Assembly: GCA_902492325.1 (NCBI GenBank)
Contig: CABULC010000002.1
Coordinates: 262,411-326,410, forward strand
Reading direction: 5' to 3'
Source of the DNA: an uncultured Clostridium sp.
GTDB lineage: Bacteria > Bacillota_I > Bacilli_A > RF39 > UBA660
Length of the DNA: 64,000 nucleotides
The position numbers and the translations under genes are program-made. Positions 5,957-63,941 of the stretch are shown here, piece after piece; positions within the stretch are counted from its first letter, which is position 1, and each line of letters opens with the position of its first letter. A model generated the notes under the pieces. The model saw only the letters and a list, made by a program, of their open reading frames with translations, was not told the origin of the DNA and ran no database searches.

Positions 5957-7570
5957 ATGAATAAAACAGAGAAAATAGATATCGGAAAAATTGTTTTAAA
6001 TGAAGAGACAAATAAAAAGTTTTTGGATTTCGATAACAATCGAGATATTTTTTATTTTGGAAATAAAGAAGATTATTATTGTAAAGTATACAATTATACA
6101 AGAAAACTAGTTTATAAATCAAGAAATGCAGGAGAAATGATTTTAAATAAATCTTTTGTATCGAATATAATAAGAATATTAAATCACGATGTTCTTATCG
6201 CTAATAAATCAAAAGAAATGGGGTATCTAGAATTATTACACTATTTAATAACTTATCAAGATACTATTAACATTATAAAATTAGGTGGTTATTGGCCATA
6301 TACTGAAGAAGACTCAAATATAAGAAAAGAAGCAATAGAACTTTTAGAAAAACAAAATAATGAAATAGAAGAATTTTTAAAATCAATAGACTATGATAAT
6401 AAAATAAAAGAATTACTTAGTAAGTATAAAGAATATACAACATATAAAGGAGAACTACCTGATGATATATTTTTAGAATTAGATTTGATATTCACAACTG
6501 CTCATAACATACCTAAAGAATATGTTGATTTATATATGAAAAACGTTACTAGCTTTAATAAATCTCTTTCATTAGAAGCTTTTAGAAATGTTATTACAAG
6601 TTTAATTAGTAATTATGCTAAAGAACATGGAACATATTGTTATACTGAAATATGCAAATTAGATTATGGAACATTAGGAAGTTATGATAATCACGTAATT
6701 ACCCTTTCAACATCAAGTTTTAATTCATATTTTTTAGGTCATTCATCAAAGAAAATAGAATTGTTCGACACAATATTCCATGAGTTAATTCATTTGTTAC
6801 AAGATAAGATATATAGATCAAAGTTTATTACTTATGATTATATATTAATGCTTAAAGATTTTTTACTAACAGGTACAATAGAGGAATCATATTTAAAAAG
6901 AAACTATATGAGTTTAACACCAGAAATAGATGCTAGAAAAAATGGCCATTTAGAAACAGATAGTTACCTTCTTTCTTTAGGAATCGCATCACGAACAAAT
7001 ACATTTGAAAAAAATCTATTAGACGAAAGAAGACATGGAACTGATTTTAGATATTACGAAGGAAAAGAATACACAGTAGATACTCTATTAGACGAAAAAA
7101 TGCCTCATGTAGTTGAAGAATTTAAAAAGAATTATAAAATCGATATATTTGAGGAATATCCTGTTATGAAATTAATGTTTCATAATGATGGAAGAAGAAA
7201 AACAACATTAGAATTGTTAAAAGAAAGAGAATCTATAGAAGATAGAGAAATTATTTCGCAAATAGATGAGATTCTAATAAGAAGAAAAATGTCAAAAGAG
7301 AATTGTGAAAAAGATTTAAAAGAGCTTATATTAGATAGTACATTATCGATTGATAAAACAGAATATATTAGAAGACTTAACATGTTATTAACAGCAAAAG
7401 AAAGAAAAAAGATACTAATAAAATTAAAATCACTTAGTTTATTATTAAAAGATTTAGGAAGAAGTTTCTTAATATTCTTAGGTGAACTAGAGGATATAGA
7501 AGCAAGAATTAATGATGAAAAAATAGATATGATTTTATCTAAAAAGATAAATAAAGAATCTAAAAATTGA
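5957..7570 (+). CDS. Hypothetical 537-aa protein with HExxH motif (FHELIHLLQD); possible zincin-like metallopeptidase
   Basis: Long ORF; motif only. Confidence 0.55.
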   Translation: MNKTEKIDIGKIVLNEETNKKFLDFDNNRDIFYFGNKEDYYCKVYNYTRKLVYKSRNAGEMILNKSFVSNIIRILNHDVLIANKSKEMGYLELLHYLITYQDTINIIKLGGYWPYTEEDSNIRKEAIELLEKQNNEIEEFLKSIDYDNKIKELLSKYKEYTTYKGELPDDIFLELDLIFTTAHNIPKEYVDLYMKNVTSFNKSLSLEAFRNVITSLISNYAKEHGTYCYTEICKLDYGTLGSYDNHVITLSTSSFNSYFLGHSSKKIELFDTIFHELIHLLQDKIYRSKFITYDYILMLKDFLLTGTIEESYLKRNYMSLTPEIDARKNGHLETDSYLLSLGIASRTNTFEKNLLDERRHGTDFRYYEGKEYTVDTLLDEKMPHVVEEFKKNYKIDIFEEYPVMKLMFHNDGRRKTTLELLKERESIEDREIISQIDEILIRRKMSKENCEKDLKELILDSTLSIDKTEYIRRLNMLLTAKERKKILIKLKSLSLLLKDLGRSFLIFLGELEDIEARINDEKIDMILSKKINKESKN

Positions 7571-7595
7571 CAAAACATTATAAATAGTATATAAT
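7567..7595 (+). promoter_or_regulatory. Consensus sigma-A-type promoter TTGACA-17-TATAAT
   Basis: ttgaca at 7567-7572, exactly 17-nt spacer, tataat at 7590-7595. Confidence 0.6.
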
Positions 7596-7601
7596 CATGT
7601 G

Positions 7602-7745
7602 CAAGTGAGGGGATATAAGATATAAATATATTGAGCTGTCCCGGGGAAACCTACACGAACTTTTATAAAGTACGGAGTCGCTGTTAAGTAGTGGATTTCG
7701 TGCTTTTTTAATTCTTTACGTTATCCATCTATTAGAAAGGAGGGA
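7602..7745 (+). promoter_or_regulatory. ~140-nt structured 5' leader with attenuator-like hairpin (cacgaa...ttcgtg + ctttttta) ahead of the RBS. Candidate riboswitch or attenuator of unknown class
   Basis: 6-bp long-range inverted repeat at 7654-7659 and 7697-7702 followed by T-run; AAGGAGGG RBS at 7737. Confidence 0.3.
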
Positions 7746-7752
7746 ATATTAT

Positions 7753-8307
7753 ATGGTAGGAGCATCAAGAATGCCAGACTTTTTTGCCATGGGAACTATT
7801 GAATCTGAGTTATTAACAGAAGTCCAAAAAAGACTTAAATATAAAAATGGAAACATTAGTGAAATGTCAAAAAGTGAACAATTAAAAATGGAAACACTAG
7901 ACTTATTAGAAAGTCTTGGTTATCCAATGGATGAATTTGGAACATATTTATATAAAGATGTAATTATGTCTATTAGAGAGCAAATTGGTGTAGTTGAAAC
8001 AAGAGAAGATGTTATTGAAGCTTCAGCAGTTTTAGAAGAAGCTAAATCAGCATTCTCACAACTATACTTCAATTTAGCAAGAAATGAAAGAGATATTGGA
8101 GTAAAAGAATATCATAGAATTCTATCTAGATCATTATCAAAGATTGATTATAAAAAGGCATCACCAGAACTATTATACAAAGTATATGGTAATTTCCCTT
8201 TTGAGATGGACTATGGCGAAAATGCTTTTGCTCTAGCAAACTTTTTAAATAGACAAGTAGATAAACCTTTATGTAGAAAACTAACAAATTCACCTAGTAT
8301 TTATTAA
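7753..8307 (+). CDS. Stand-alone Spo0A C-terminal (DNA-binding) domain-like protein; no receiver domain
   Basis: Alignment from memory to B. subtilis Spo0A C-domain: [21 protein letters not shown] ~ [47 protein letters not shown] ~ [35 protein letters not shown] ~ PTNSEFIAMVADKL. Confidence 0.5.
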   Translation: [184 protein letters not shown]

Positions 8308-8321
8308 GATTAGGTGATACT

Positions 8322-8350
8322 ATTAGAGTAACCTAGCGTTACTCTATTTT
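8322..8350 (+). terminator. Terminator
   Basis: gagtaac-ctagc-gttactc hairpin followed by tatttttt. Confidence 0.6.
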
Positions 8351-8368
8351 TTATAGGAGGATGAAGTT

Positions 8369-9349
8369 ATGAGTATAATAGAAGTTAAAAACTTATCAAA
8401 AACATTCGAAGTTAAATTAAAAGAAAAAGGTTTAAAAGGAAGTCTTAAGTCAATATTTAAACCTAAGTATAAAACTATTAAAGCTGTTAAGAATATAAGT
8501 TTCAATATAGAAAAGGGTGAAGTTATAGCATTCATAGGACCAAATGGGGCAGGTAAAAGTACTACTATCAAGATGTTAACAGGAATACTTTATAAAGATA
8601 AAGGAACTATTAATATAGATGGTTTAGATCCAGAAAAAGATAGAAAAAAACTTGCTAATGAAATAGGTACTGTATTTGGTCAAAAAGAACAACTATGGAT
8701 GCATCTAACTCCATATGATAACTTTAAATTTTTCGGAGCTATTTATGACATACCAGAATCAATAGTTGAAAAGAAAATAGAAGAATTTAAAGTATTATTT
8801 GAACTAGATGAATTTATAAATACACCAGTACGTAATCTAAGTTTAGGTCAAAGAATACGTTGTGAGATAGTAGCATCACTAATACATGAACCAAAAATAT
8901 TATTCTTAGATGAACCAACTATAGGTCTAGACCCAGTAGTAAAAGAAAATATTCGTACACTTATTAAAAGAATGAACAAAGAATATAAAACAACAATATT
9001 CTTAACAAGTCACGATGTATCAGATATAGAAAAACTATGTAAAAGAGTTATCATAATAAATAATGGTGCTTTAGTACTAGATGATTCAATGGAAAATTTA
9101 AAATACCATTACCTACACAAAAAGATATTAGAAGCTAAAATGAAAGAAAAAGTAAATCTAAATGATGAAGAAGGTATAACTATATTAAAAGATAAAGGAT
9201 ATAACTTGAAAATAGAAGTAGATACTAGTAAACGTAGTATAAGTGATGCTATAAAATTATTAAATCCAGATAATATAATAGATATTAATATATCAAATAC
9301 GCCTCTTGAAGATATAATAAGCGAAATATATAAAAAAGAGGATAAATAA
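8369..9349 (+). CDS. ABC transporter ATP-binding protein (ABC-2 type)
   Basis: Walker A GPNGAGKST, signature LSLGQRIR, Walker B ILFLDEPT; AGGAGG RBS. Confidence 0.9.
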   Translation: MSIIEVKNLSKTFEVKLKEKGLKGSLKSIFKPKYKTIKAVKNISFNIEKGEVIAFIGPNGAGKSTTIKMLTGILYKDKGTINIDGLDPEKDRKKLANEIGTVFGQKEQLWMHLTPYDNFKFFGAIYDIPESIVEKKIEEFKVLFELDEFINTPVRNLSLGQRIRCEIVASLIHEPKILFLDEPTIGLDPVVKENIRTLIKRMNKEYKTTIFLTSHDVSDIEKLCKRVIIINNGALVLDDSMENLKYHYLHKKILEAKMKEKVNLNDEEGITILKDKGYNLKIEVDTSKRSISDAIKLLNPDNIIDINISNTPLEDIISEIYKKEDK

Positions 9350-10140
9350 TGAAAAAGTATTTATTTATATTTAAAACAGAAATAATAAATAGTTTACAAT
9401 ATATGTTTAACTTATTATCAGGCTTTATAGCATACATAATAATGATATATGTATTTTTATGCTTATGGAAATATATGTATAGTGACCCAGCATCTCTTAT
9501 AAATGGTTATAATCTAAATCAAATGATATGGTATATAATTATTACTGAGATATTATGGATGAGCCTAGGTGGTAAAAAAATATGTCGTAAGATAACTAAT
9601 GATGTAAAAAATGGTAACATCGCATATAACATAAATAAACCTTATAACTATATCTTATATAATCTATCTAGCAATTTAGGAAGTATATTCATAAAGTTTA
9701 TAGTATTTACAGTACTAGCTATGATATTAGGATTTATATTTTTAGGAACATTTCCTCAGTTAAATATATTATCTATTTTAGCAGTACTACTTACAAGCAT
9801 TTTAGCAACTACAATAAGTATATTAATAATGATAGGTATAGGTTTATTCTCATTTATAATAGAAGATTCAACACCATTATACTGGGTATATAGTAAATTT
9901 ATATTAGTCTTAGGAACAATATTTCCAATAGAATTCTTTAGTGGAATATTAAGAACAATATTAAAATATAGTCCAATATATGTTGTATCTTATGGACCAG
10001 CTAAATTATTTGTAAACTTTAGTACAAGTGAATTTATAGCAATAATTATTTCACAATTAATATACTTAGTTATATCTTATTTAATAGCTACATTTATATA
10101 CAAGAAAGGGGTGAAAAAACTAAATGTTAACGGAGGTTAA
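9349..10140 (+). CDS. ABC-2 family permease
   Basis: 6-TM hydrophobic ORF, start overlaps ATPase stop. Confidence 0.7.
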   Translation: MKKYLFIFKTEIINSLQYMFNLLSGFIAYIIMIYVFLCLWKYMYSDPASLINGYNLNQMIWYIIITEILWMSLGGKKICRKITNDVKNGNIAYNINKPYNYILYNLSSNLGSIFIKFIVFTVLAMILGFIFLGTFPQLNILSILAVLLTSILATTISILIMIGIGLFSFIIEDSTPLYWVYSKFILVLGTIFPIEFFSGILRTILKYSPIYVVSYGPAKLFVNFSTSEFIAIIISQLIYLVISYLIATFIYKKGVKKLNVNGG

Positions 10141-10918
10141 AAATCAATTAAAAGTAAATTATTTATCTATAAAGTATGGTCTTATGAGAGAAATGGTAAA
10201 TAAGTTTTCATTCTTAGCAAATATAATCTTTATGATTATAAATAACTCATGTTTTATCATACAATGGGTAGTACTTTATTCATTAAAAGATAACATTGGT
10301 GGATATACTTTTAAACAAATGTTATTACTTTGGGGGATCGCAGCAAGTACCTTCGGAGTTTCAAGATTCTTCTTTAAGAAAGCATTTAGTTTATCAGAAA
10401 CAATAAATACTGGTAAATTAGATGCGTTCTTAGTACAGCCTAAAAATGTATTATTAAGTGCAATAACTACTGACGTAGAAGTTTCAGCTATAGGAGACTT
10501 AATCTATGGATATGTAATACTTATCATATATGGAATAACTTTAAAAAACTTTTTATTGTTTACAATATTTACTATATTAGGTGGCCTAATAATAGCTTGC
10601 GTTTCAGTAATAGCAAATAGTCTATCATTTTGGTTTAACATGACAGATGTTTTAGCAGACACAATAAATAACATGATGATAATATTTGGTACATACCCTA
10701 AAGATATATTTAATGGAATAGTAAAGATAATTCTTTATACAATAGTTCCAGTTGGTATCGCAAACTATATACCAATAGACTTAATAATAAACTTTAATAT
10801 ATATGGATTCTTATTAGTATTCACAGTAACAATATTTTTAGTAGTTTTATCATTCTATATATTTAACAAAGGATTAAAAAGATACTCTTCAAGTAACTTG
10901 ATGAGTTCAAGAATATAA
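10124..10918 (+). CDS. ABC-2 family permease (second subunit)
   Basis: Hydrophobic ORF, overlapping previous gene; AGGGGTGA RBS. Confidence 0.7.
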   Translation: MLTEVKNQLKVNYLSIKYGLMREMVNKFSFLANIIFMIINNSCFIIQWVVLYSLKDNIGGYTFKQMLLLWGIAASTFGVSRFFFKKAFSLSETINTGKLDAFLVQPKNVLLSAITTDVEVSAIGDLIYGYVILIIYGITLKNFLLFTIFTILGGLIIACVSVIANSLSFWFNMTDVLADTINNMMIIFGTYPKDIFNGIVKIILYTIVPVGIANYIPIDLIINFNIYGFLLVFTVTIFLVVLSFYIFNKGLKRYSSSNLMSSRI

Positions 10919-11060: not shown

Positions 11061-11801
11061 ATGCAAATGTTAGTTAAAGGAGTAAATGTTAATTATACAT
11101 TTTATGATAATAGTAGTAGTATAAACTTAGTTTATCTACACGGCTGGGGCCAAAATATTGAAATGATGATGCCAATAGCAAAACCTTTTATCAAGAAATA
11201 TAATGTATTAATTATTGATTTTCCAGGCTTTGGTGATAGTGATGAACCTAAAGAAGTTTGGAGTGTTTTTGACTATGCAGAAATGGTTAATGAAATGGTT
11301 AAAAAATTAAACATGAAAAATCCTATTGTTATAGGACACTCTTTTGGTGGCAAAATTGCATTAATATATGGTTATAAATATAAACCTAGAAAAGTAGTTG
11401 TACTAGCAAGTCCATATAAACAAGTTATAACAAAACCAACATTAAAAATGAAATTATTAAAACAAGCAAAAAAAATACCAGGACTTGGTAAACTAGAAAA
11501 TTTTGTTAAGAAACATGTTGGTTCAACTGATTATAGAAATGCTAGCGAAATGATGAGAAAAGTATTAGTTGCTCATGTTAATACAGATATTACTGAAGAT
11601 TTAAAGAAAATAAAATGTCCAGTATTAGGTATATGGGGAACTAATGATGCAGCTGTTGATATTGAAGATGGAAGAGAGTTAGAAAACTATATTCCAAATT
11701 ATGGTTTAGTTGAATATCCAGGATGTACACACTACGCATATTTAGAAAATCTAGGTCAAACAATTAGTGTACTTAATAATTTTATTGGAAGTGAGGAGTA
11801 A
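11061..11801 (+). CDS. Alpha/beta hydrolase (esterase/lipase family)
   Basis: Nucleophile elbow GHSFGG, HGWG oxyanion region; start moved to ATG with GAGGTGA RBS. Confidence 0.75.
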   Translation: MQMLVKGVNVNYTFYDNSSSINLVYLHGWGQNIEMMMPIAKPFIKKYNVLIIDFPGFGDSDEPKEVWSVFDYAEMVNEMVKKLNMKNPIVIGHSFGGKIALIYGYKYKPRKVVVLASPYKQVITKPTLKMKLLKQAKKIPGLGKLENFVKKHVGSTDYRNASEMMRKVLVAHVNTDITEDLKKIKCPVLGIWGTNDAAVDIEDGRELENYIPNYGLVEYPGCTHYAYLENLGQTISVLNNFIGSEE

Positions 11802-11802
11802 T

Positions 11803-13401
11803 ATGAGCATTAAAGTATATTTTTTATTAACACTATTAACATATATTTATTATTTAACATACAAATCAAGAAAAGCATTACATATGCTTCAACAAAACTG
11901 GTATAACGATGGCAATAGATATCTAAAATGGGTTAAAACAAATGCTAAAAAAGTATTTATAACATTTGATATGGCATTTATATTATTTTATTTTATGAAG
12001 TTCTTAAATACTAAAGTAACATTAATTATATTTGCAGTATTCTACTTAGTAGTATATTTCTTATATAAAAACAATGCAGTAAAAGAACAATCTAAAAAAC
12101 CATTAGTAGTAACAGCAAGAATTAAAAGACTTTATACTACAATGTTTGTATTGTTAATACTTTGTTTAATACCAATGGTTATACATTTTAATGTTAATAA
12201 CTTGTTTATATATTACTTAATAATTGGTTTATTCTCATATATAAATACAATAGTTATATGGTTATGTAACATTATCAACAAACCGGTAGAGAAAATGGTA
12301 TATCTTCATTATAAAAGACAAGCACAAAGTAAACTTTATAGTATGAATTCTCTTAAAAAAATAGCTGTAACAGGAAGTTATGGAAAAACAAGTACTAAGA
12401 ATGCATTAAATGATATATTAAATGTTAAATATAATTCATTTGCAACGCCTAAGAGTTTCAACACTATGTATGGACTAATAAATGCTATTAACAATTATAT
12501 GGATAAATTTAGTGAAACTTTTGTAGCAGAAATGGGAGCATTCTATAGAGGAGAAATAAAAGAAAAAGCAAACTTTATAAAACCTAAATATGGAATTTTA
12601 ACAATTATTGGAACAGCACACTTAGAAAGTTTTGGTAGTCAGGAAAATATTCAAAAAGCAAAATTTGAATTAATAGATTCACTTCCAGATGATGGAGTCG
12701 CAGTCTTAAATATGGATGATCCATATCAAACAAGTTATAAATTAAAAAGTAAATGCAAAGTAATATGGGTATCAACTAAAAATAAAGATGCTGATGTTTA
12801 TGCAACTGATATAAAACTATCTAACAAAGGAACAACATTTACTTGTATATTTAAAAATACTAAAGAAAAACATACATTTGAAACTAAACTTCTTGGAAGT
12901 GCCAATGTATATAATGTTTTACAAGCAATAGCTATGTCATATGAATTAGGTCTTACTTTAGAACAAATAGCTATCGGAGTAAGAAGAATACAAACTATTG
13001 AACATAGACTTGAACTAAAAAAATACACAGAAAATATTTATATAATAGATGATGCATACAATTCAAACCCAGTTGGTTCTAAAATGGCAGTAGATGTTCT
13101 TAAAATGATGAAAGGTAAAAGAATAATCGTAACACCAGGTATGATAGAACTAGGAGATGAACAATATAGTTCAAACTTCGAATTTGGAAGACAAATAGCT
13201 GGATGTGCAGATGAAGTAATCTTAGTTGGAGAAGAACAAACAAAACCAATTCAAGATGGGCTTAAAAAAGAAAAATATCCTAAATCACAAATACATATTC
13301 TAAATGATGTTAAAGAAGCATTCCCATTAATGAGAAAACTAAGTGACAAAGAAACATATGTATTATTAGAAAATGATTTACCAGATATATTTAATGAATA
13401 G
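11803..13401 (+). CDS. murF: MurF-like UDP-MurNAc-tripeptide:D-Ala-D-Ala ligase whose canonical N-terminal domain is replaced by a ~190-aa five-TM membrane domain
   Basis: Mur ligase P-loop IAVTGSYGKTST and MurF-type C-terminal motif DDAYNSNP; five hydrophobic helices before the ligase core; GAGGAG RBS. Confidence 0.8.
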   Translation: MSIKVYFLLTLLTYIYYLTYKSRKALHMLQQNWYNDGNRYLKWVKTNAKKVFITFDMAFILFYFMKFLNTKVTLIIFAVFYLVVYFLYKNNAVKEQSKKPLVVTARIKRLYTTMFVLLILCLIPMVIHFNVNNLFIYYLIIGLFSYINTIVIWLCNIINKPVEKMVYLHYKRQAQSKLYSMNSLKKIAVTGSYGKTSTKNALNDILNVKYNSFATPKSFNTMYGLINAINNYMDKFSETFVAEMGAFYRGEIKEKANFIKPKYGILTIIGTAHLESFGSQENIQKAKFELIDSLPDDGVAVLNMDDPYQTSYKLKSKCKVIWVSTKNKDADVYATDIKLSNKGTTFTCIFKNTKEKHTFETKLLGSANVYNVLQAIAMSYELGLTLEQIAIGVRRIQTIEHRLELKKYTENIYIIDDAYNSNPVGSKMAVDVLKMMKGKRIIVTPGMIELGDEQYSSNFEFGRQIAGCADEVILVGEEQTKPIQDGLKKEKYPKSQIHILNDVKEAFPLMRKLSDKETYVLLENDLPDIFNE

Positions 13402-13412
13402 GAGAAGTGAAT

Positions 13413-14615
13413 ATGAAAATTAAAGTAGGAGTTATTTATGGTGGAGAAACAGTTGAACATGAAGTAAGTATCATTTCAGCTATTCAAGCAATGAATAATT
13501 TAGATGAAGAAAAATATGAAATAATACCAATATATATATCTAAAGATAGAATATGGTACACAGGACATGTACTAAGAGAAATGGATTTCTATAAACATTT
13601 TGAAGATGAAAAGAAATATGCTAAAGAAGTAACTCTTTGCAAAAAAGGAAAAATGTTTATACTTCAAAAAACCAATGGATTATTTAGAAAAGATATTACA
13701 GATTTAGATATCATTTTACCAGTAGTACATGGTAATAATGTAGAAGATGGAACTTTAGCTGGATTGCTTGATTCGATAGGAATTCCATATGTAGGTTCAC
13801 ACGTATTAGGTTCTGCATTAGGACAAGATAAAGTTGTTATGAAACAAGTAATGTCTTCAGTAGGAATTCCAGTAGTAGATTATACTTGGTTCTTTGATAA
13901 TGAATATCTTGAAAATAAAGATGAAATTCTAGATAAAATTAAAAAACTAGGTTATCCAGTAGTTGTAAAACCAGCAACACTAGGAAGTAGTGTAGGTATA
14001 ACACTAGTACATGATTCTAAAAAGATTGAAGAAGCAATCGAAGAAGCAATTAGTTATGATACTAAAGTAGTAGTAGAAAAAGCTGTAGAAAATTTAGTAG
14101 AAGTAAATGCAAGTGTACTTGGAAACTATGAATATCAAAAAGTAAGTCCATTAGAAGAAGTAATGGGACTTGATGAAATATTAAGTTATGCAGATAAATA
14201 CTTAGGAAACTCTAAAACTAAAGGTGTTAAAACAACTGCATCTAAAGGAATGGCATCTACTAGTAGAATTATTCCAGCAAGAATATCAGATAATTTAACA
14301 AAAGATATTCAAGATACTGCTAAAAATGTATTTAAGACATTAAACTTAAGTGGTGTATGTAGAATAGACTTCTTAATAGATAAAAAAGAAAACAAATTCT
14401 ATGTAAATGAACCAAATACTTGTCCAGGCAGTTTATCATTCTATTTATGGAAAGAAGCAAATGTTAAATATAGAGAACTTCTAGATGAAATGATAAGTAT
14501 TGCTATCAAAGAATACAAAAACAAATCTAAAAAAGTAAAATCATTCAAGAGTAATATCTTAGAAGGATTTAATGGTACTAAAGGTGCAAAAGGTATCAAA
14601 GGATTAAAGAACTAA
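13413..14615 (+). CDS. ddl: D-alanine--D-alanine ligase with omega-loop insertion and ~40-aa K/G-rich C-terminal tail
   Basis: N-terminal signature GGETVEHEVSIISA, ATP-grasp core, omega-loop Tyr retained (SYADKYL). Confidence 0.85.
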   Translation: MKIKVGVIYGGETVEHEVSIISAIQAMNNLDEEKYEIIPIYISKDRIWYTGHVLREMDFYKHFEDEKKYAKEVTLCKKGKMFILQKTNGLFRKDITDLDIILPVVHGNNVEDGTLAGLLDSIGIPYVGSHVLGSALGQDKVVMKQVMSSVGIPVVDYTWFFDNEYLENKDEILDKIKKLGYPVVVKPATLGSSVGITLVHDSKKIEEAIEEAISYDTKVVVEKAVENLVEVNASVLGNYEYQKVSPLEEVMGLDEILSYADKYLGNSKTKGVKTTASKGMASTSRIIPARISDNLTKDIQDTAKNVFKTLNLSGVCRIDFLIDKKENKFYVNEPNTCPGSLSFYLWKEANVKYRELLDEMISIAIKEYKNKSKKVKSFKSNILEGFNGTKGAKGIKGLKN

Positions 14616-44030: not shown

Positions 44031-44106
44031 TGGCGCCTGATGCAGGACTCGGACCTGCGACCTAACGGTTAACAGCCGTGCGCTCTACCGACTGAGCTAA
44101 TCAGGC
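44031..44106 (-). tRNA. trnN: tRNA-Asn (anticodon GTT)
   Basis: rc reads gcctgattagctcagtcggtagagcgcacggctGTTaaccg...ggttcgagtcctgcatcaggcgcca. Confidence 0.9.
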
Positions 44107-44209
44107 ACTTGCATAAATAATTATAGATTATCATTTTATATTTGTCAATAAAAATATGGACTTTTATTATAAAAATTGATAAAATTAATATGAATTAAGA
44201 GGGAAAAGT

Positions 44210-63762: not shown

Positions 63763-63867
63763 AACCTCTATTTTTTTAATAAAAATTTAATTTTATAGTT
63801 GACAGGCAGAAATTCTTCTAGTATAATGAATTATGCAATTCAAGAAAGCGAATACTTTCTAAAATAT

Positions 63868-63941
63868 GCAGGTGTAGTTTAATGGTAGAACTTCAGCCTT
63901 CCAAGCTGCTAACGTGGGTCCGATTCCCATCACCTGCTCCA
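63868..63941 (+). tRNA. trnG: tRNA-Gly (anticodon TCC)
   Basis: gcaggtgtagtttaatggtagaacttcagccTTCCaagctg...ggtccgattcccatcacctgctcca, near-identical to Bacillus tRNA-Gly(UCC). Confidence 0.9.

Follow-up and report, generated by a model that had tools for sequence, protein, structure and literature searches.

What is transcribed between a perfect consensus promoter and the start codon at position 7753, and does it control the gene behind it? A sequence-only reading of the window (the whole stretch of 64 kb analysed, to which all coordinates refer) had proposed a ~140-nt structured leader with an attenuator-like hairpin, whose layout was considered typical of a riboswitch, a T-box or a protein-mediated attenuator. 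Here the leader was followed up by covariance modelling, folding and comparison with related loci. All features described lie on the + strand.

Transcription initiation

The −35 hexamer TTGACA (7567–7572) and the −10 hexamer TATAAT (7590–7595) are separated by a 17-nt spacer and match the consensus at 12 of 12 positions. By sequence they meet the description of a sigma-70/SigA-type promoter (TTGACA, TATAAT, a spacer of 17 ± 1 nt and retention in relatives); promoter activity itself is only predicted. The proposed promoter is therefore present, and its occurrence lies above chance: the 64 kb contain three perfect 17-spaced TTGACA/TATAAT sites against 0.09 expected, a number reached in none of 100 shuffles. 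The other two sites lead into tRNA genes, whose promoters the leader promoter matches in sequence strength, and within 5–11 kb no 12/12 site was found besides that at 7567–7595. Elsewhere, a 12/12 promoter stands at the same offset in 60 of 73 distinct promoter-bearing leaders and in none of 15 internal copies of the motif. Since the promoter is tRNA-grade by sequence and so widely retained, regulation after initiation fits these observations. As a separate observation, the TGA stop codon (7568–7570) of an upstream 537-aa ORF falls within the −35 hexamer.

The transcript start is inferred at ~7601–7604. A CAA preceding the conserved GUGAG is retained in promoter-bearing copies only, from which we infer that the fold described below starts at the 5′ end of the transcript.

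Structure of the leader RNA

We found a conserved fold of ~80 nt with four helices, which occurs in uncultured gut Bacilli and occupies 7601–7683 in the window as an aptamer-like domain (the sensing fold) built around a four-helix junction of P0, P1/P1b, P2 and P3. P0 joins GUGA (7605–7608) to 7678–7681. It is paired in 100% of the sequences and forms in 79 of 88 aptamer-only folds; because it is invariant apart from U-A/U-G, covariation cannot prove it, and its pairing is inferred. Extending P0 by two pairs was rejected, as only 20–40% of the sequences pair there and the extension is not conserved. P1 joins GGGAUA (7610–7615) to UGUCCC (7637–7642), with compensatory changes in five of its six pairs (GAGAUA/UAUCUC, GGGAUA/UAUCCC, UGUGUA/UACACA). 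It leads into an internal loop with the strands UAA (7616–7618), invariant in the 101-sequence alignment, and GAGC (7633–7636), which is near-invariant (AGC in all 101 sequences; the first G in at least 80% but less than 97%, with A in some copies). The loop is capped by the P1b hairpin (7619–7632), variable in length (5 to >30 nt) and sequence, with a G-U or G-C closing pair followed by C-G, A-U or U-A. The P2 hairpin GGG-GAAA-CCU (7643–7652), in which three of four pairs covary and whose stem ranges from 3 to ~10 bp in relatives, is followed by the invariant junction ACA (7653–7655) and the P3 hairpin (7656–7674), in which five of six modelled pairs covary. The fold is closed by the segment 7675–7681, i.e. 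the invariant GAG junction (7675–7677) and the P0 3′ strand UCGC (7678–7681); GGAGUC(A/G)C is invariant and its bases also belong to the 5′ arm of a terminator (see below). The G+C-richer stretch gagctgtcccggggaaacctacacgaac that had been noticed in the leader is found at 7633–7660 and is composed of the P1 3′ strand, P2, the ACA junction and the P3 5′ strand.

The conserved strings GUGAG, UAUAAG, GAGCUA, ACAC and GGAGUCAC are all located at the junction and the internal loop, where ~35 nucleotides are invariant across lineages with fully changed stems, the variable parts of the motif being hairpin tips. A ligand pocket, for which there are no binding data, would putatively lie there. As the bases in question are all invariant, covariation does not exclude another tertiary arrangement. 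A reading of the UAA/GAGC loop as a kink-turn or a UAA/GAN motif was considered, but the extra C would misfit a canonical 3×3 loop.

The covariance model built in this analysis identified 101 copies of the motif in 82 related loci. The window holds a single copy, which scores 78.9 bits (E = 2.7e-20, model R1). In the alignment 95.2% of cells pair, compared with 27–41% in slid controls, compensatory double changes occur in 14 of 22 pairs, and the observed covariation score was reached by none of 500 shuffles. Furthermore, orthologues with just 31–40% protein identity are still preceded by the leader, so that the lack of conservation that would have refuted the earlier proposal is not what the comparative alignment reveals. 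Judged by sequence comparison, the leader is a conserved, covarying structured RNA, and the covariation-supported fold expected of a riboswitch is present. The minimum-energy fold of 7601–7683 taken alone equals the comparative model. The single-sequence fold of the leader is unremarkable by itself (z = −1.53), and the structure is therefore established by comparison.

With respect to the procedure, a MAFFT alignment of all aptamers misaligned P3; the model was consequently built from a consistent subset and the sequences were realigned to it. The metagenome scan with a 17-mer was rich in chance matches, and inspection led to the removal of about half of the 120 loci. A phage or mobile origin was considered and rejected, because the 17-mer had 11 matches in IMG/VR, all by chance and none coinciding with a match to the covariance model.

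No riboswitch class had been recognised by eye, and database searches were equally negative. At the gathering threshold none of the 4227 models of Rfam 15 (including T-box, PyrR, ykkC, mepA, crcB and the AAC/AAD leader) matched over the leader in a search of the whole window and of 14 related loci with ~25 copies. At E ≤ 10 the versions from the window and from the distant loci L013 and L009 gave only chance matches, e.g. caiA via the ribosome-binding site, or snoRNAs. A T-box, leader-peptide or other known attenuator would likewise combine a promoter, a long leader, a terminator and a ribosome-binding site, but in view of the missing match to any such Rfam family at E ≤ 10 this explanation can practically be discounted, and the T-box has to be struck from the original proposal. 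A leader peptide was rejected separately for the 18-codon UUG ORF at 7631–7687: its frame is distributed 21/35/25 among the three phases, in-frame stops occur in 38 of 81 leaders, and about half of the leaders carry a non-start codon at the start position. Literature searches by topic, sequence string and taxon retrieved no description of the motif. Its core strings are absent from the first 200 of the 408 supplementary files of a human-microbiome structured-RNA survey, the part of that source to which this statement is limited. Since orphan riboswitch candidates are not rare, the motif is only moderately surprising as long as it lacks an identified ligand. The motifs described in a 50-genome ncRNA paper and in the Gd4v paper (PMC9788692) differ from the one reported here.

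Terminator and read-through

A 17-bp hairpin that overlaps the end of P3 is predicted at 7667–7706; its 5′ arm consists of the P3 3′ strand, GAG and UCGC. The U-run UUUUUU (7704–7709) directly after the stem completes what is required of an intrinsic terminator, on the basis of sequence and fold prediction. The stem is long and G-U-rich, which is why it had escaped a simple scan. The attenuator-like hairpin of the sequence-only reading is thus present as this stem, and not as the 6-bp stem of cacgaa (7654–7659) and ttcgtg (7697–7702) to which it had been assigned. The complementarity of these two strings and the T-run behind them are real, but a conserved pairing had to be rejected: in the loci L004 and L006–L008 the 3′ arm reads UUCGUA, so that the C-G pair of the short stem is lost and a U-G pair of the terminator becomes U-A, i.e. 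the change from GUGC to GUAC strengthens the terminator stem. Moreover, forcing the 6-bp stem to form costs 7 kcal/mol of stability relative to the terminator state.

The minimum-energy fold of the full leader contains the terminator and amounts to −29.1 kcal/mol versus −16.9 kcal/mol for the sensing fold. The terminator, which is ~12 kcal/mol more stable, takes up the 3′ third of the sensing fold, and this overlap is observed in 84 of 88 distinct leaders as well. Because both structures use the P3 3′ strand, GAG and the P0 3′ strand, they are mutually exclusive, which provides the expression platform of a riboswitch and corresponds to ON-switch logic. We consider it probable that the leader is a new orphan, riboswitch-type, terminator-coupled ON attenuator, the ligand of which is unknown. 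In the presence of its signal it would most likely turn on the small regulator gene in the window and, in relatives, genes for exporters and acetyltransferases. A constitutive leaky attenuator, or a 5′ structure that merely stabilises the mRNA without sensing, would agree with the lack of an identified effector and with a terminator much more stable than the fold. It is nevertheless very improbable, since the ~35 invariant junction and loop nucleotides would not be needed in a passive hairpin and the mutual exclusion is so consistently kept.

A post-terminator element (7717–7732) is complementary to the terminator 3′ arm (7688–7703). The corresponding duplex reaches −13.1 kcal/mol in the window versus −6.9 kcal/mol when shuffled (z = −3.6), and across 91 leaders the mean is −11.4 versus −6.0 kcal/mol (median z = −3.2). 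It is followed by the Shine-Dalgarno sequence AAGGAGGG (7737–7744), 8 nt ahead of the ATG at 7753, in agreement with the ribosome-binding site that had been placed just after the leader. For a possible unmasking of the Shine-Dalgarno sequence by the element, the mean unpaired probabilities of 0.53 and 0.57 did not differ significantly (p = 0.11); in the window itself the value goes from 0.34 to 0.74.

The arm sequence hence occurs three times, as terminator 5′ arm, 3′ arm and post-terminator element, in relatives as CACGAAUA / UAUUCGUG / CACGAAUA. These arms recall the 0A box TGNCGAA. An operator at the DNA level, in which the repeats are binding sites of the Spo0A-C-like protein encoded downstream, would be suggested by the presence of the repeats in most leaders and by the Spo0A DNA-binding fold of that neighbour. 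Yet the arms vary by lineage while obeying base-pairing rules including G-U (e.g. GUGAUUCUGU / AUAGAAUCAU), which is sensible only in RNA, the covarying helices P1–P3 would be left unexplained, and the apparent likeness to the 0A box is imperfect. We regard an operator as hardly credible.

Genes behind the motif

The motif is found on the same strand and at a fixed distance ahead of at least 10 unrelated gene families. Nearly all 101 copies precede an ORF with a Shine-Dalgarno sequence by 50–100 nt, or precede a second copy; for a few copies on short contigs no ORF was called. The window conforms to this arrangement, with the fold in cis in the 5′ leader of the gene that starts at 7753, as expected of a riboswitch. 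In 7 loci, representing 5 distinct arrangements (L051, L063 and L066 are near-duplicates), tandem copies were observed, each with its own terminator, and in at least 13 loci promoter-less internal copies lie between genes. The second copies lack a promoter and belong to a subtype of their own, in which P1 is UGUGUA/UACACA. Together with the mutual exclusion of fold and terminator, the position in cis before several gene families supports the original proposal of an attenuator, as far as a riboswitch or a protein-mediated system is concerned.

These data also bear on the possibility of a stand-alone, abundant, trans-acting small RNA of ~105 nt (7601–7709), whose position before these genes would be coincidental. 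The element is indeed flanked by a tRNA-grade promoter and a terminator that looks efficient, but the constant position before ORFs or second copies and the promoter-less copies inside operons and in tandem speak against such an RNA, to which we give only a very small chance. The terminator, in addition, consumes the conserved fold, so that the terminated RNA would lose the conserved structure.

The gene behind the leader (7753–8307) encodes a 184-aa all-helical protein with the six-helix fold and helix-turn-helix of the Spo0A C-terminal DNA-binding domain. Compared with the Spo0A C-terminal effector domain (PDB 1fc3), it carries a helical N-terminal extension of ~55 residues (1–55) instead, and it lacks a receiver domain. 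The protein has no Pfam (including Spo0A_C) or NCBIfam match, and the family profile finds no Spo0A among PDB sequences; the family occurs in MAGs of uncultured gut Bacilli. The gene is followed by a plain terminator-like hairpin with a T-run (8324–8346); at the equivalent position, the motif occurs a second time in many relatives. Behind it, genes for a DrrA-like ABC ATPase and two ABC2_membrane_6 permeases (8369–10918) represent the gene set most often found directly behind the motif in other genomes. The literature offered nothing useful on what the ABC2_membrane_6 family does.

Most often, the first gene that follows the motif belongs to the 184-aa family (24 of ~90) or to the similarly placed C6 family (5). 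Neither of the co-located families C6 and C4 shows a significant relationship to the 184-aa family (hhalign E = 0.016 and 0.42, respectively). Other genes encode the ABC-2 exporter, several GNATs, DUF402, an S51-like peptidase and unknown families. The set looks like detoxification or export; the genes do not point to one metabolite, and no single compound is implied, which counts against a riboswitch.

The frequency of a regulator-type gene with the Spo0A-C-like fold keeps a protein effector possible. In such protein-dependent antitermination, the main rival, the fold would be held by an RNA-binding protein encoded elsewhere, or by the Spo0A-C-like protein itself in positive feedback. The nucleic-acid-binding fold of the 184-aa protein and the highly invariant single-stranded bases would suit recognition by a protein. 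However, the Spo0A C-domain is a DNA-binding helix-turn-helix for which no RNA-binding precedent is known. Furthermore, many copies of the motif precede other genes without an adjacent gene of the 184-aa type, a distant homologue of the protein (locus L017) is encoded without the motif, tandem copies with their own terminators are a known riboswitch arrangement, and none of the protein-binding leader families of Rfam matched. We thus consider protein-dependent antitermination unlikely, albeit not negligible.

Discussion

If the leader is a riboswitch-type ON attenuator, the following course of events can be proposed from the predicted structures. Transcription would start at the consensus promoter, at ~7601–7604, and the first ~80 nt would fold into the four-helix junction of P0, P1 with the UAA/GAGC loop capped by P1b, P2 and P3. 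Unless this fold is held, the next 25 nt may invade P3 and P0 to form the far more stable 17-bp terminator, and transcription would stop before the 184-aa gene. An effector that stabilises the fold while the polymerase passes would prevent nucleation of the terminator, the Spo0A-C-like gene would be transcribed, and read-through might reach the ABC exporter behind it. A third hairpin, formed by the terminator 3′ arm and the post-terminator element, could couple read-through to a second step, e.g. translation or mRNA stability. That the effector is a small molecule, and which one, is inferred in the absence of binding data.

In the transcriptional ON riboswitches for adenine (pbuE/ydhL), guanidine-I (ykkC) and fluoride (crcB), the aptamer 3′ strand is also the terminator 5′ arm, and several of this group control export or detoxification genes. 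As in these switches, fold and intrinsic terminator of the leader share nucleotides, the bound fold would allow read-through, and termination is the predicted default. In contrast to them, the leader contains a four-helix junction with an invariant UAA/GAGC-type loop (GAGC near-invariant) and an additional conserved post-terminator element, and it is not recognised by Rfam 15. Tandem arrangements are known from TPP and glycine riboswitches. Like these, the 7 tandem loci have a single gene preceded by two complete copies, each with its own terminator; unlike these, the window has a single copy and the second copies of its relatives are of the promoter-less subtype. Guanidine-IV (mepA) and its orphan variant Gd4v are ON switches with a terminator that are tied to GNAT acetyltransferases and efflux proteins, Gd4v being enriched in mammalian gut bacteria and still orphan (PMC9788692). 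Both consist of two hairpins that interact through kissing loops and accompany MATE, SugE and transaminase genes (PMC9788692), whereas the leader is built as a four-way junction, is associated with genes for an ABC-2 exporter and a Spo0A-C-like protein, and has no Rfam match to mepA.

The regulon of exporter and N-acetyltransferases suggests, as a matter of speculation, a toxic and probably amine-bearing compound. A more far-reaching proposal, which we offer only tentatively and would not quite call probable, is a new riboswitch class for a compound new to riboswitches (e.g. a polyamine, or an amine-bearing toxin or antibiotic in the gut). It would turn on an ABC-2 exporter and N-acetyltransferases as a detoxification regulon and set the dose of a receiver-less Spo0A-type factor in a riboswitch-to-transcription-factor cascade, with the third hairpin as a new platform feature.

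Being short, with an unambiguous ON logic and a consensus promoter, the element might be put to use as a compact inducible switch. A riboswitch before a receiver-less Spo0A-type protein, often with a second copy before the exporter, would be an unusual layered circuit. The vertebrate-gut Bacilli concerned form a large group that is uncultured and little studied, and their regulation is almost unknown. If the RNA binds a small molecule, the group would add a riboswitch class, and the ligand would name a stress against which these reduced-genome bacteria defend themselves, as well as the substrates of the uncharacterised ABC-2 exporter and of several GNATs.

Promoter and conservation of the leader

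The sequence-only reading had proposed a textbook TTGACA-17-TATAAT promoter, and both hexamers were indeed read on the forward strand (-35 at 7567–7572, -10 at 7590–7595, 17-nt spacer), forming the only 12/12 match within 5–11 kb. It exceeds chance, as perfect 17-spaced sites occur three times in the 64-kb window compared to only 0.09 expected from shuffles. The remaining two, at 44120–44148 (reverse) and 63799–63827 (forward), are located just 5' of tRNA genes (44034–44106, reverse; 63868–63938, forward), so that, judged by sequence, the leader has a promoter as strong as that of a tRNA gene. Perfect consensus promoters in this genome seem to be reserved for RNA genes and this leader. Likewise, the G+C-richer segment (7633–7660), the T-run (7704–7709) and the Shine-Dalgarno sequence AAGGAGGG (7737–7744) ahead of the ATG at 7753 were all found as described. 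The upstream 537-aa ORF (5957–7570), for which no Pfam family was found, has its TGA stop (7568–7570) within the -35 hexamer and is kept 5' of the leader in L001–L008, related loci from other genomes or metagenomes.

The 184-aa protein encoded behind the leader (7753–8307, forward) has a narrow homologue set (n = 20), and a scan with one genome per species gave 20 loci with homologues, all of them in low-G+C MAGs of uncultured gut bacteria that carry the labels Bacilli, Mollicutes, Lactobacillales or Candidatus Faecimonas. 5' of the orthologues the leader is kept blockwise down to 31–40% protein identity, in each case with a consensus promoter upstream whose spacing is constant; it is absent at the distant homologue L017. 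The blocks are, in order, CAAGUGAGGRGAUAUAAG, a variable hairpin, GAGCUAUCYCGGG, a loop, CCUACAC, a variable hairpin, GGAGUCAC, and a hairpin followed by the T-run.

Scanning metagenomes with an invariant 17-mer yielded 120 loci, about half carrying the full motif and about half being chance matches; the 17-mer matches in IMG/VR included no real copy. A covariance model was built on 26 copies that align consistently, their structure being assigned by hand. It identified one copy in the window (7601–7683, 78.9 bits) and 101 copies at 82 loci. It also recovers copies out of reach of the 17-mer, which form a promoter-less subtype with P1 as UGUGUA/UACACA in place of GRGAUA/UAUCYC. For the distinct promoter-bearing leaders, a 12/12 consensus promoter ending 8–11 nt before GUGAG was observed in 60 of 73 and an 11/12 promoter in ten more, while 15 internal copies showed no promoter match above 8/12. 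Because the CAA ahead of GUGAG is kept in promoter-bearing copies only, we infer that the transcript starts where the fold starts.

Fold of the leader RNA

Since the single-sequence fold energy is unremarkable (z = -1.53), the case for structure was made by comparison. In the window (forward strand) the model comprises P0 (7605–7608/7678–7681), P1 (7610–7615/7637–7642) with an internal loop (7616–7618/7633–7636), P1b (7619–7632), P2 (7643–7652), an ACA junction (7653–7655), P3 (7656–7674) and a GAG junction (7675–7677). In the 101-sequence alignment (84 distinct rows) standard pairs fill 95.2% of cells versus 27–41% with partners slid by 1–3 columns, 14 of the 22 pairs changed on both sides, and none of 500 shuffles reached the observed covariation score. 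Covarying pairs number 5/6 in P1, 3/4 in P2 and 5/6 in P3; P1b varies in length, its second pair being C-G, A-U or U-A. P0 (GUGA/UCRC) can pair in all copies but is invariant and remains an inferred helix; its extension by two further pairs was rejected as not conserved. Invariant bases are confined to the four-way junction and the UAA/GAGC internal loop of P1, and every hairpin tip tolerates variation. The model was checked independently by folding 7601–7683 in isolation, and the resulting minimum-energy structure (-18.6 kcal/mol) matches it exactly.

Predicted competition with a terminator

Extending the leader to the T-run gives a minimum-energy fold of -29.1 kcal/mol, compared to -16.9 kcal/mol for the sensing fold (the four-helix RNA) on the same transcript. 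Here P1 and P2 are retained, and P3 and P0 are exchanged for a 17-bp hairpin (7667–7706) followed by UUUUUU. As the 5' arm of this terminator consists of the P3 3' strand, GAG and UCGC, both structures cannot coexist. In full-length folds the 3' strand of P0 finds a downstream partner in 84 of 88 distinct leaders; in aptamer-only folds P0 forms in 79 of them. From these energies and the overlap we deduce that the default state would be termination and that anything stabilising the sensing fold during polymerase passage would cause read-through, an ON logic like that of the pbuE adenine riboswitch. The previously noted cacgaa (7654–7659) and ttcgtg (7697–7702) are complementary, but their functional pairing was rejected: the state holding this stem reaches only -21.8 kcal/mol, and L004 and L006–L008 have UUCGUA as the 3' arm, a variant that disrupts the stem and improves the terminator.

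Nearly every leader furthermore contains, 6 to 14 nt past the T-run, a segment complementary to the terminator 3' arm. In the window it spans 7717–7732 and pairs with 7688–7703; it was seen at the matching position in about 90 related leaders and co-varies with the arm between lineages, G-U pairs included. The duplex energy averages -11.4 kcal/mol versus -6.0 for shuffles (median z -3.2; z below -2 in 74% of 91 leaders). Such pairing would create a third hairpin in read-through transcripts only. Whether this element might free the Shine-Dalgarno sequence was tested by unpaired probability, with no clear effect overall (p = 0.11) and a positive result for the window alone, where the value goes from 0.34 to 0.74.

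Genes behind the motif and nature of the effector

ORFs behind all copies were clustered and representatives scanned for families. First behind the motif stand the 184-aa family (24 times), a DrrA-like ABC ATPase with two ABC2_membrane_6 permeases (20 times, and often second), GNAT acetyltransferase cluster C2 (13 times), a 141-aa unknown family (11 times) and a 156–184-aa family (5 times; L057, L081, L089, L107, L140). In the order motif, gene, ABC exporter, the last takes the place of the 184-aa family; its alignment to that family across the LGYxMDExGTYLY signature is weak (hhalign E 0.016), and it may be a very divergent relative. GNATs of two other clusters usually lie further down the same operons, and smaller groups comprise DUF402 proteins, an S51-like peptidase and a 359-aa protein that, lacking a Pfam hit, can only be called putatively transglutaminase-like from its sequence. 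Taken as a set, these genes resemble a system for exporting and modifying a toxic compound, without pointing to a particular ligand.

The arrangement met most frequently runs promoter, motif, 184-aa gene, second motif and ABC exporter. The window lacks the second motif; between the 184-aa gene and the exporter genes (8369–10918) a plain terminator-like hairpin (8324–8346, 9 bp and T-run) takes the slot that holds a second copy in many relatives. Promoter-less internal copies occur in at least 13 loci. Tandem copies, two complete motifs with own terminators ahead of one gene, were found at seven loci in five distinct arrangements (L032 829–1069, L021 2348–2552, L136 703–910, L068 4474–4706, and the near-duplicates L066 3373–3573, L051 80–280 and L063 1974–2174), the second copy usually being of the promoter-less subtype.

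The 7753–10918 region was also compared with L006–L008 and L043 (5001–5550 and downstream). The flanking genes at window 11061–14612 (alpha/beta hydrolase, MurF-like protein, Ddl) are 98–99% identical to those of L006–L008, yet the Spo0A-C-like gene of these loci is only ~60% identical and they miss the ABC exporter. What the leader controls thus behaves like a variable cassette set in a backbone that is otherwise nearly identical.

No Pfam or NCBIfam family was found for the 184-aa protein. AlphaFold2 on the family alignment gave an all-helical model (pLDDT 81.5, pTM 0.78), with neither a receiver domain nor a sequence-level match to Spo0A. As the regulated gene looks like a Spo0A-type factor, protein-dependent antitermination, possibly by the 184-aa protein itself, stays open as the main rival. 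We regard it as unlikely. The combination of several unrelated gene families, placement strictly in cis and copies in tandem usually marks a riboswitch and not an autoregulatory protein leader. A small-molecule effector, i.e. a true riboswitch with unidentified ligand, is the reading we favour, with some reserve. Of the layouts initially considered, the attenuator stood, the T-box was rejected for want of an Rfam match at E<=10, and the choice between small molecule and protein is undecided. A leader peptide was rejected by a conservation test of the leader ORF.

In line with the earlier failure to assign a class by eye, no Rfam 15 family matches the window or distant leader versions at gathering score or E<=10. 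Searching the literature by topic, by taxon and by strings of the core sequence turned up no description, which does not exclude publications beyond the searchable literature; the searchable part of the supplements to a human-microbiome structured-RNA survey contained none of the core strings. Thematically nearest is the orphan Gd4v variant of guanidine-IV riboswitches, which differs in both architecture and gene set (PMC9788692).

Taken together, the structured attenuator-like leader is real and goes beyond what could be seen from the sequence alone: the leader RNA is widespread, covaries, is coupled to a terminator and belongs to a class absent from Rfam 15, and we are highly confident that it acts in cis as an attenuator with ON logic. 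We infer that it seems to control how much of a constitutively active Spo0A-type factor is made.
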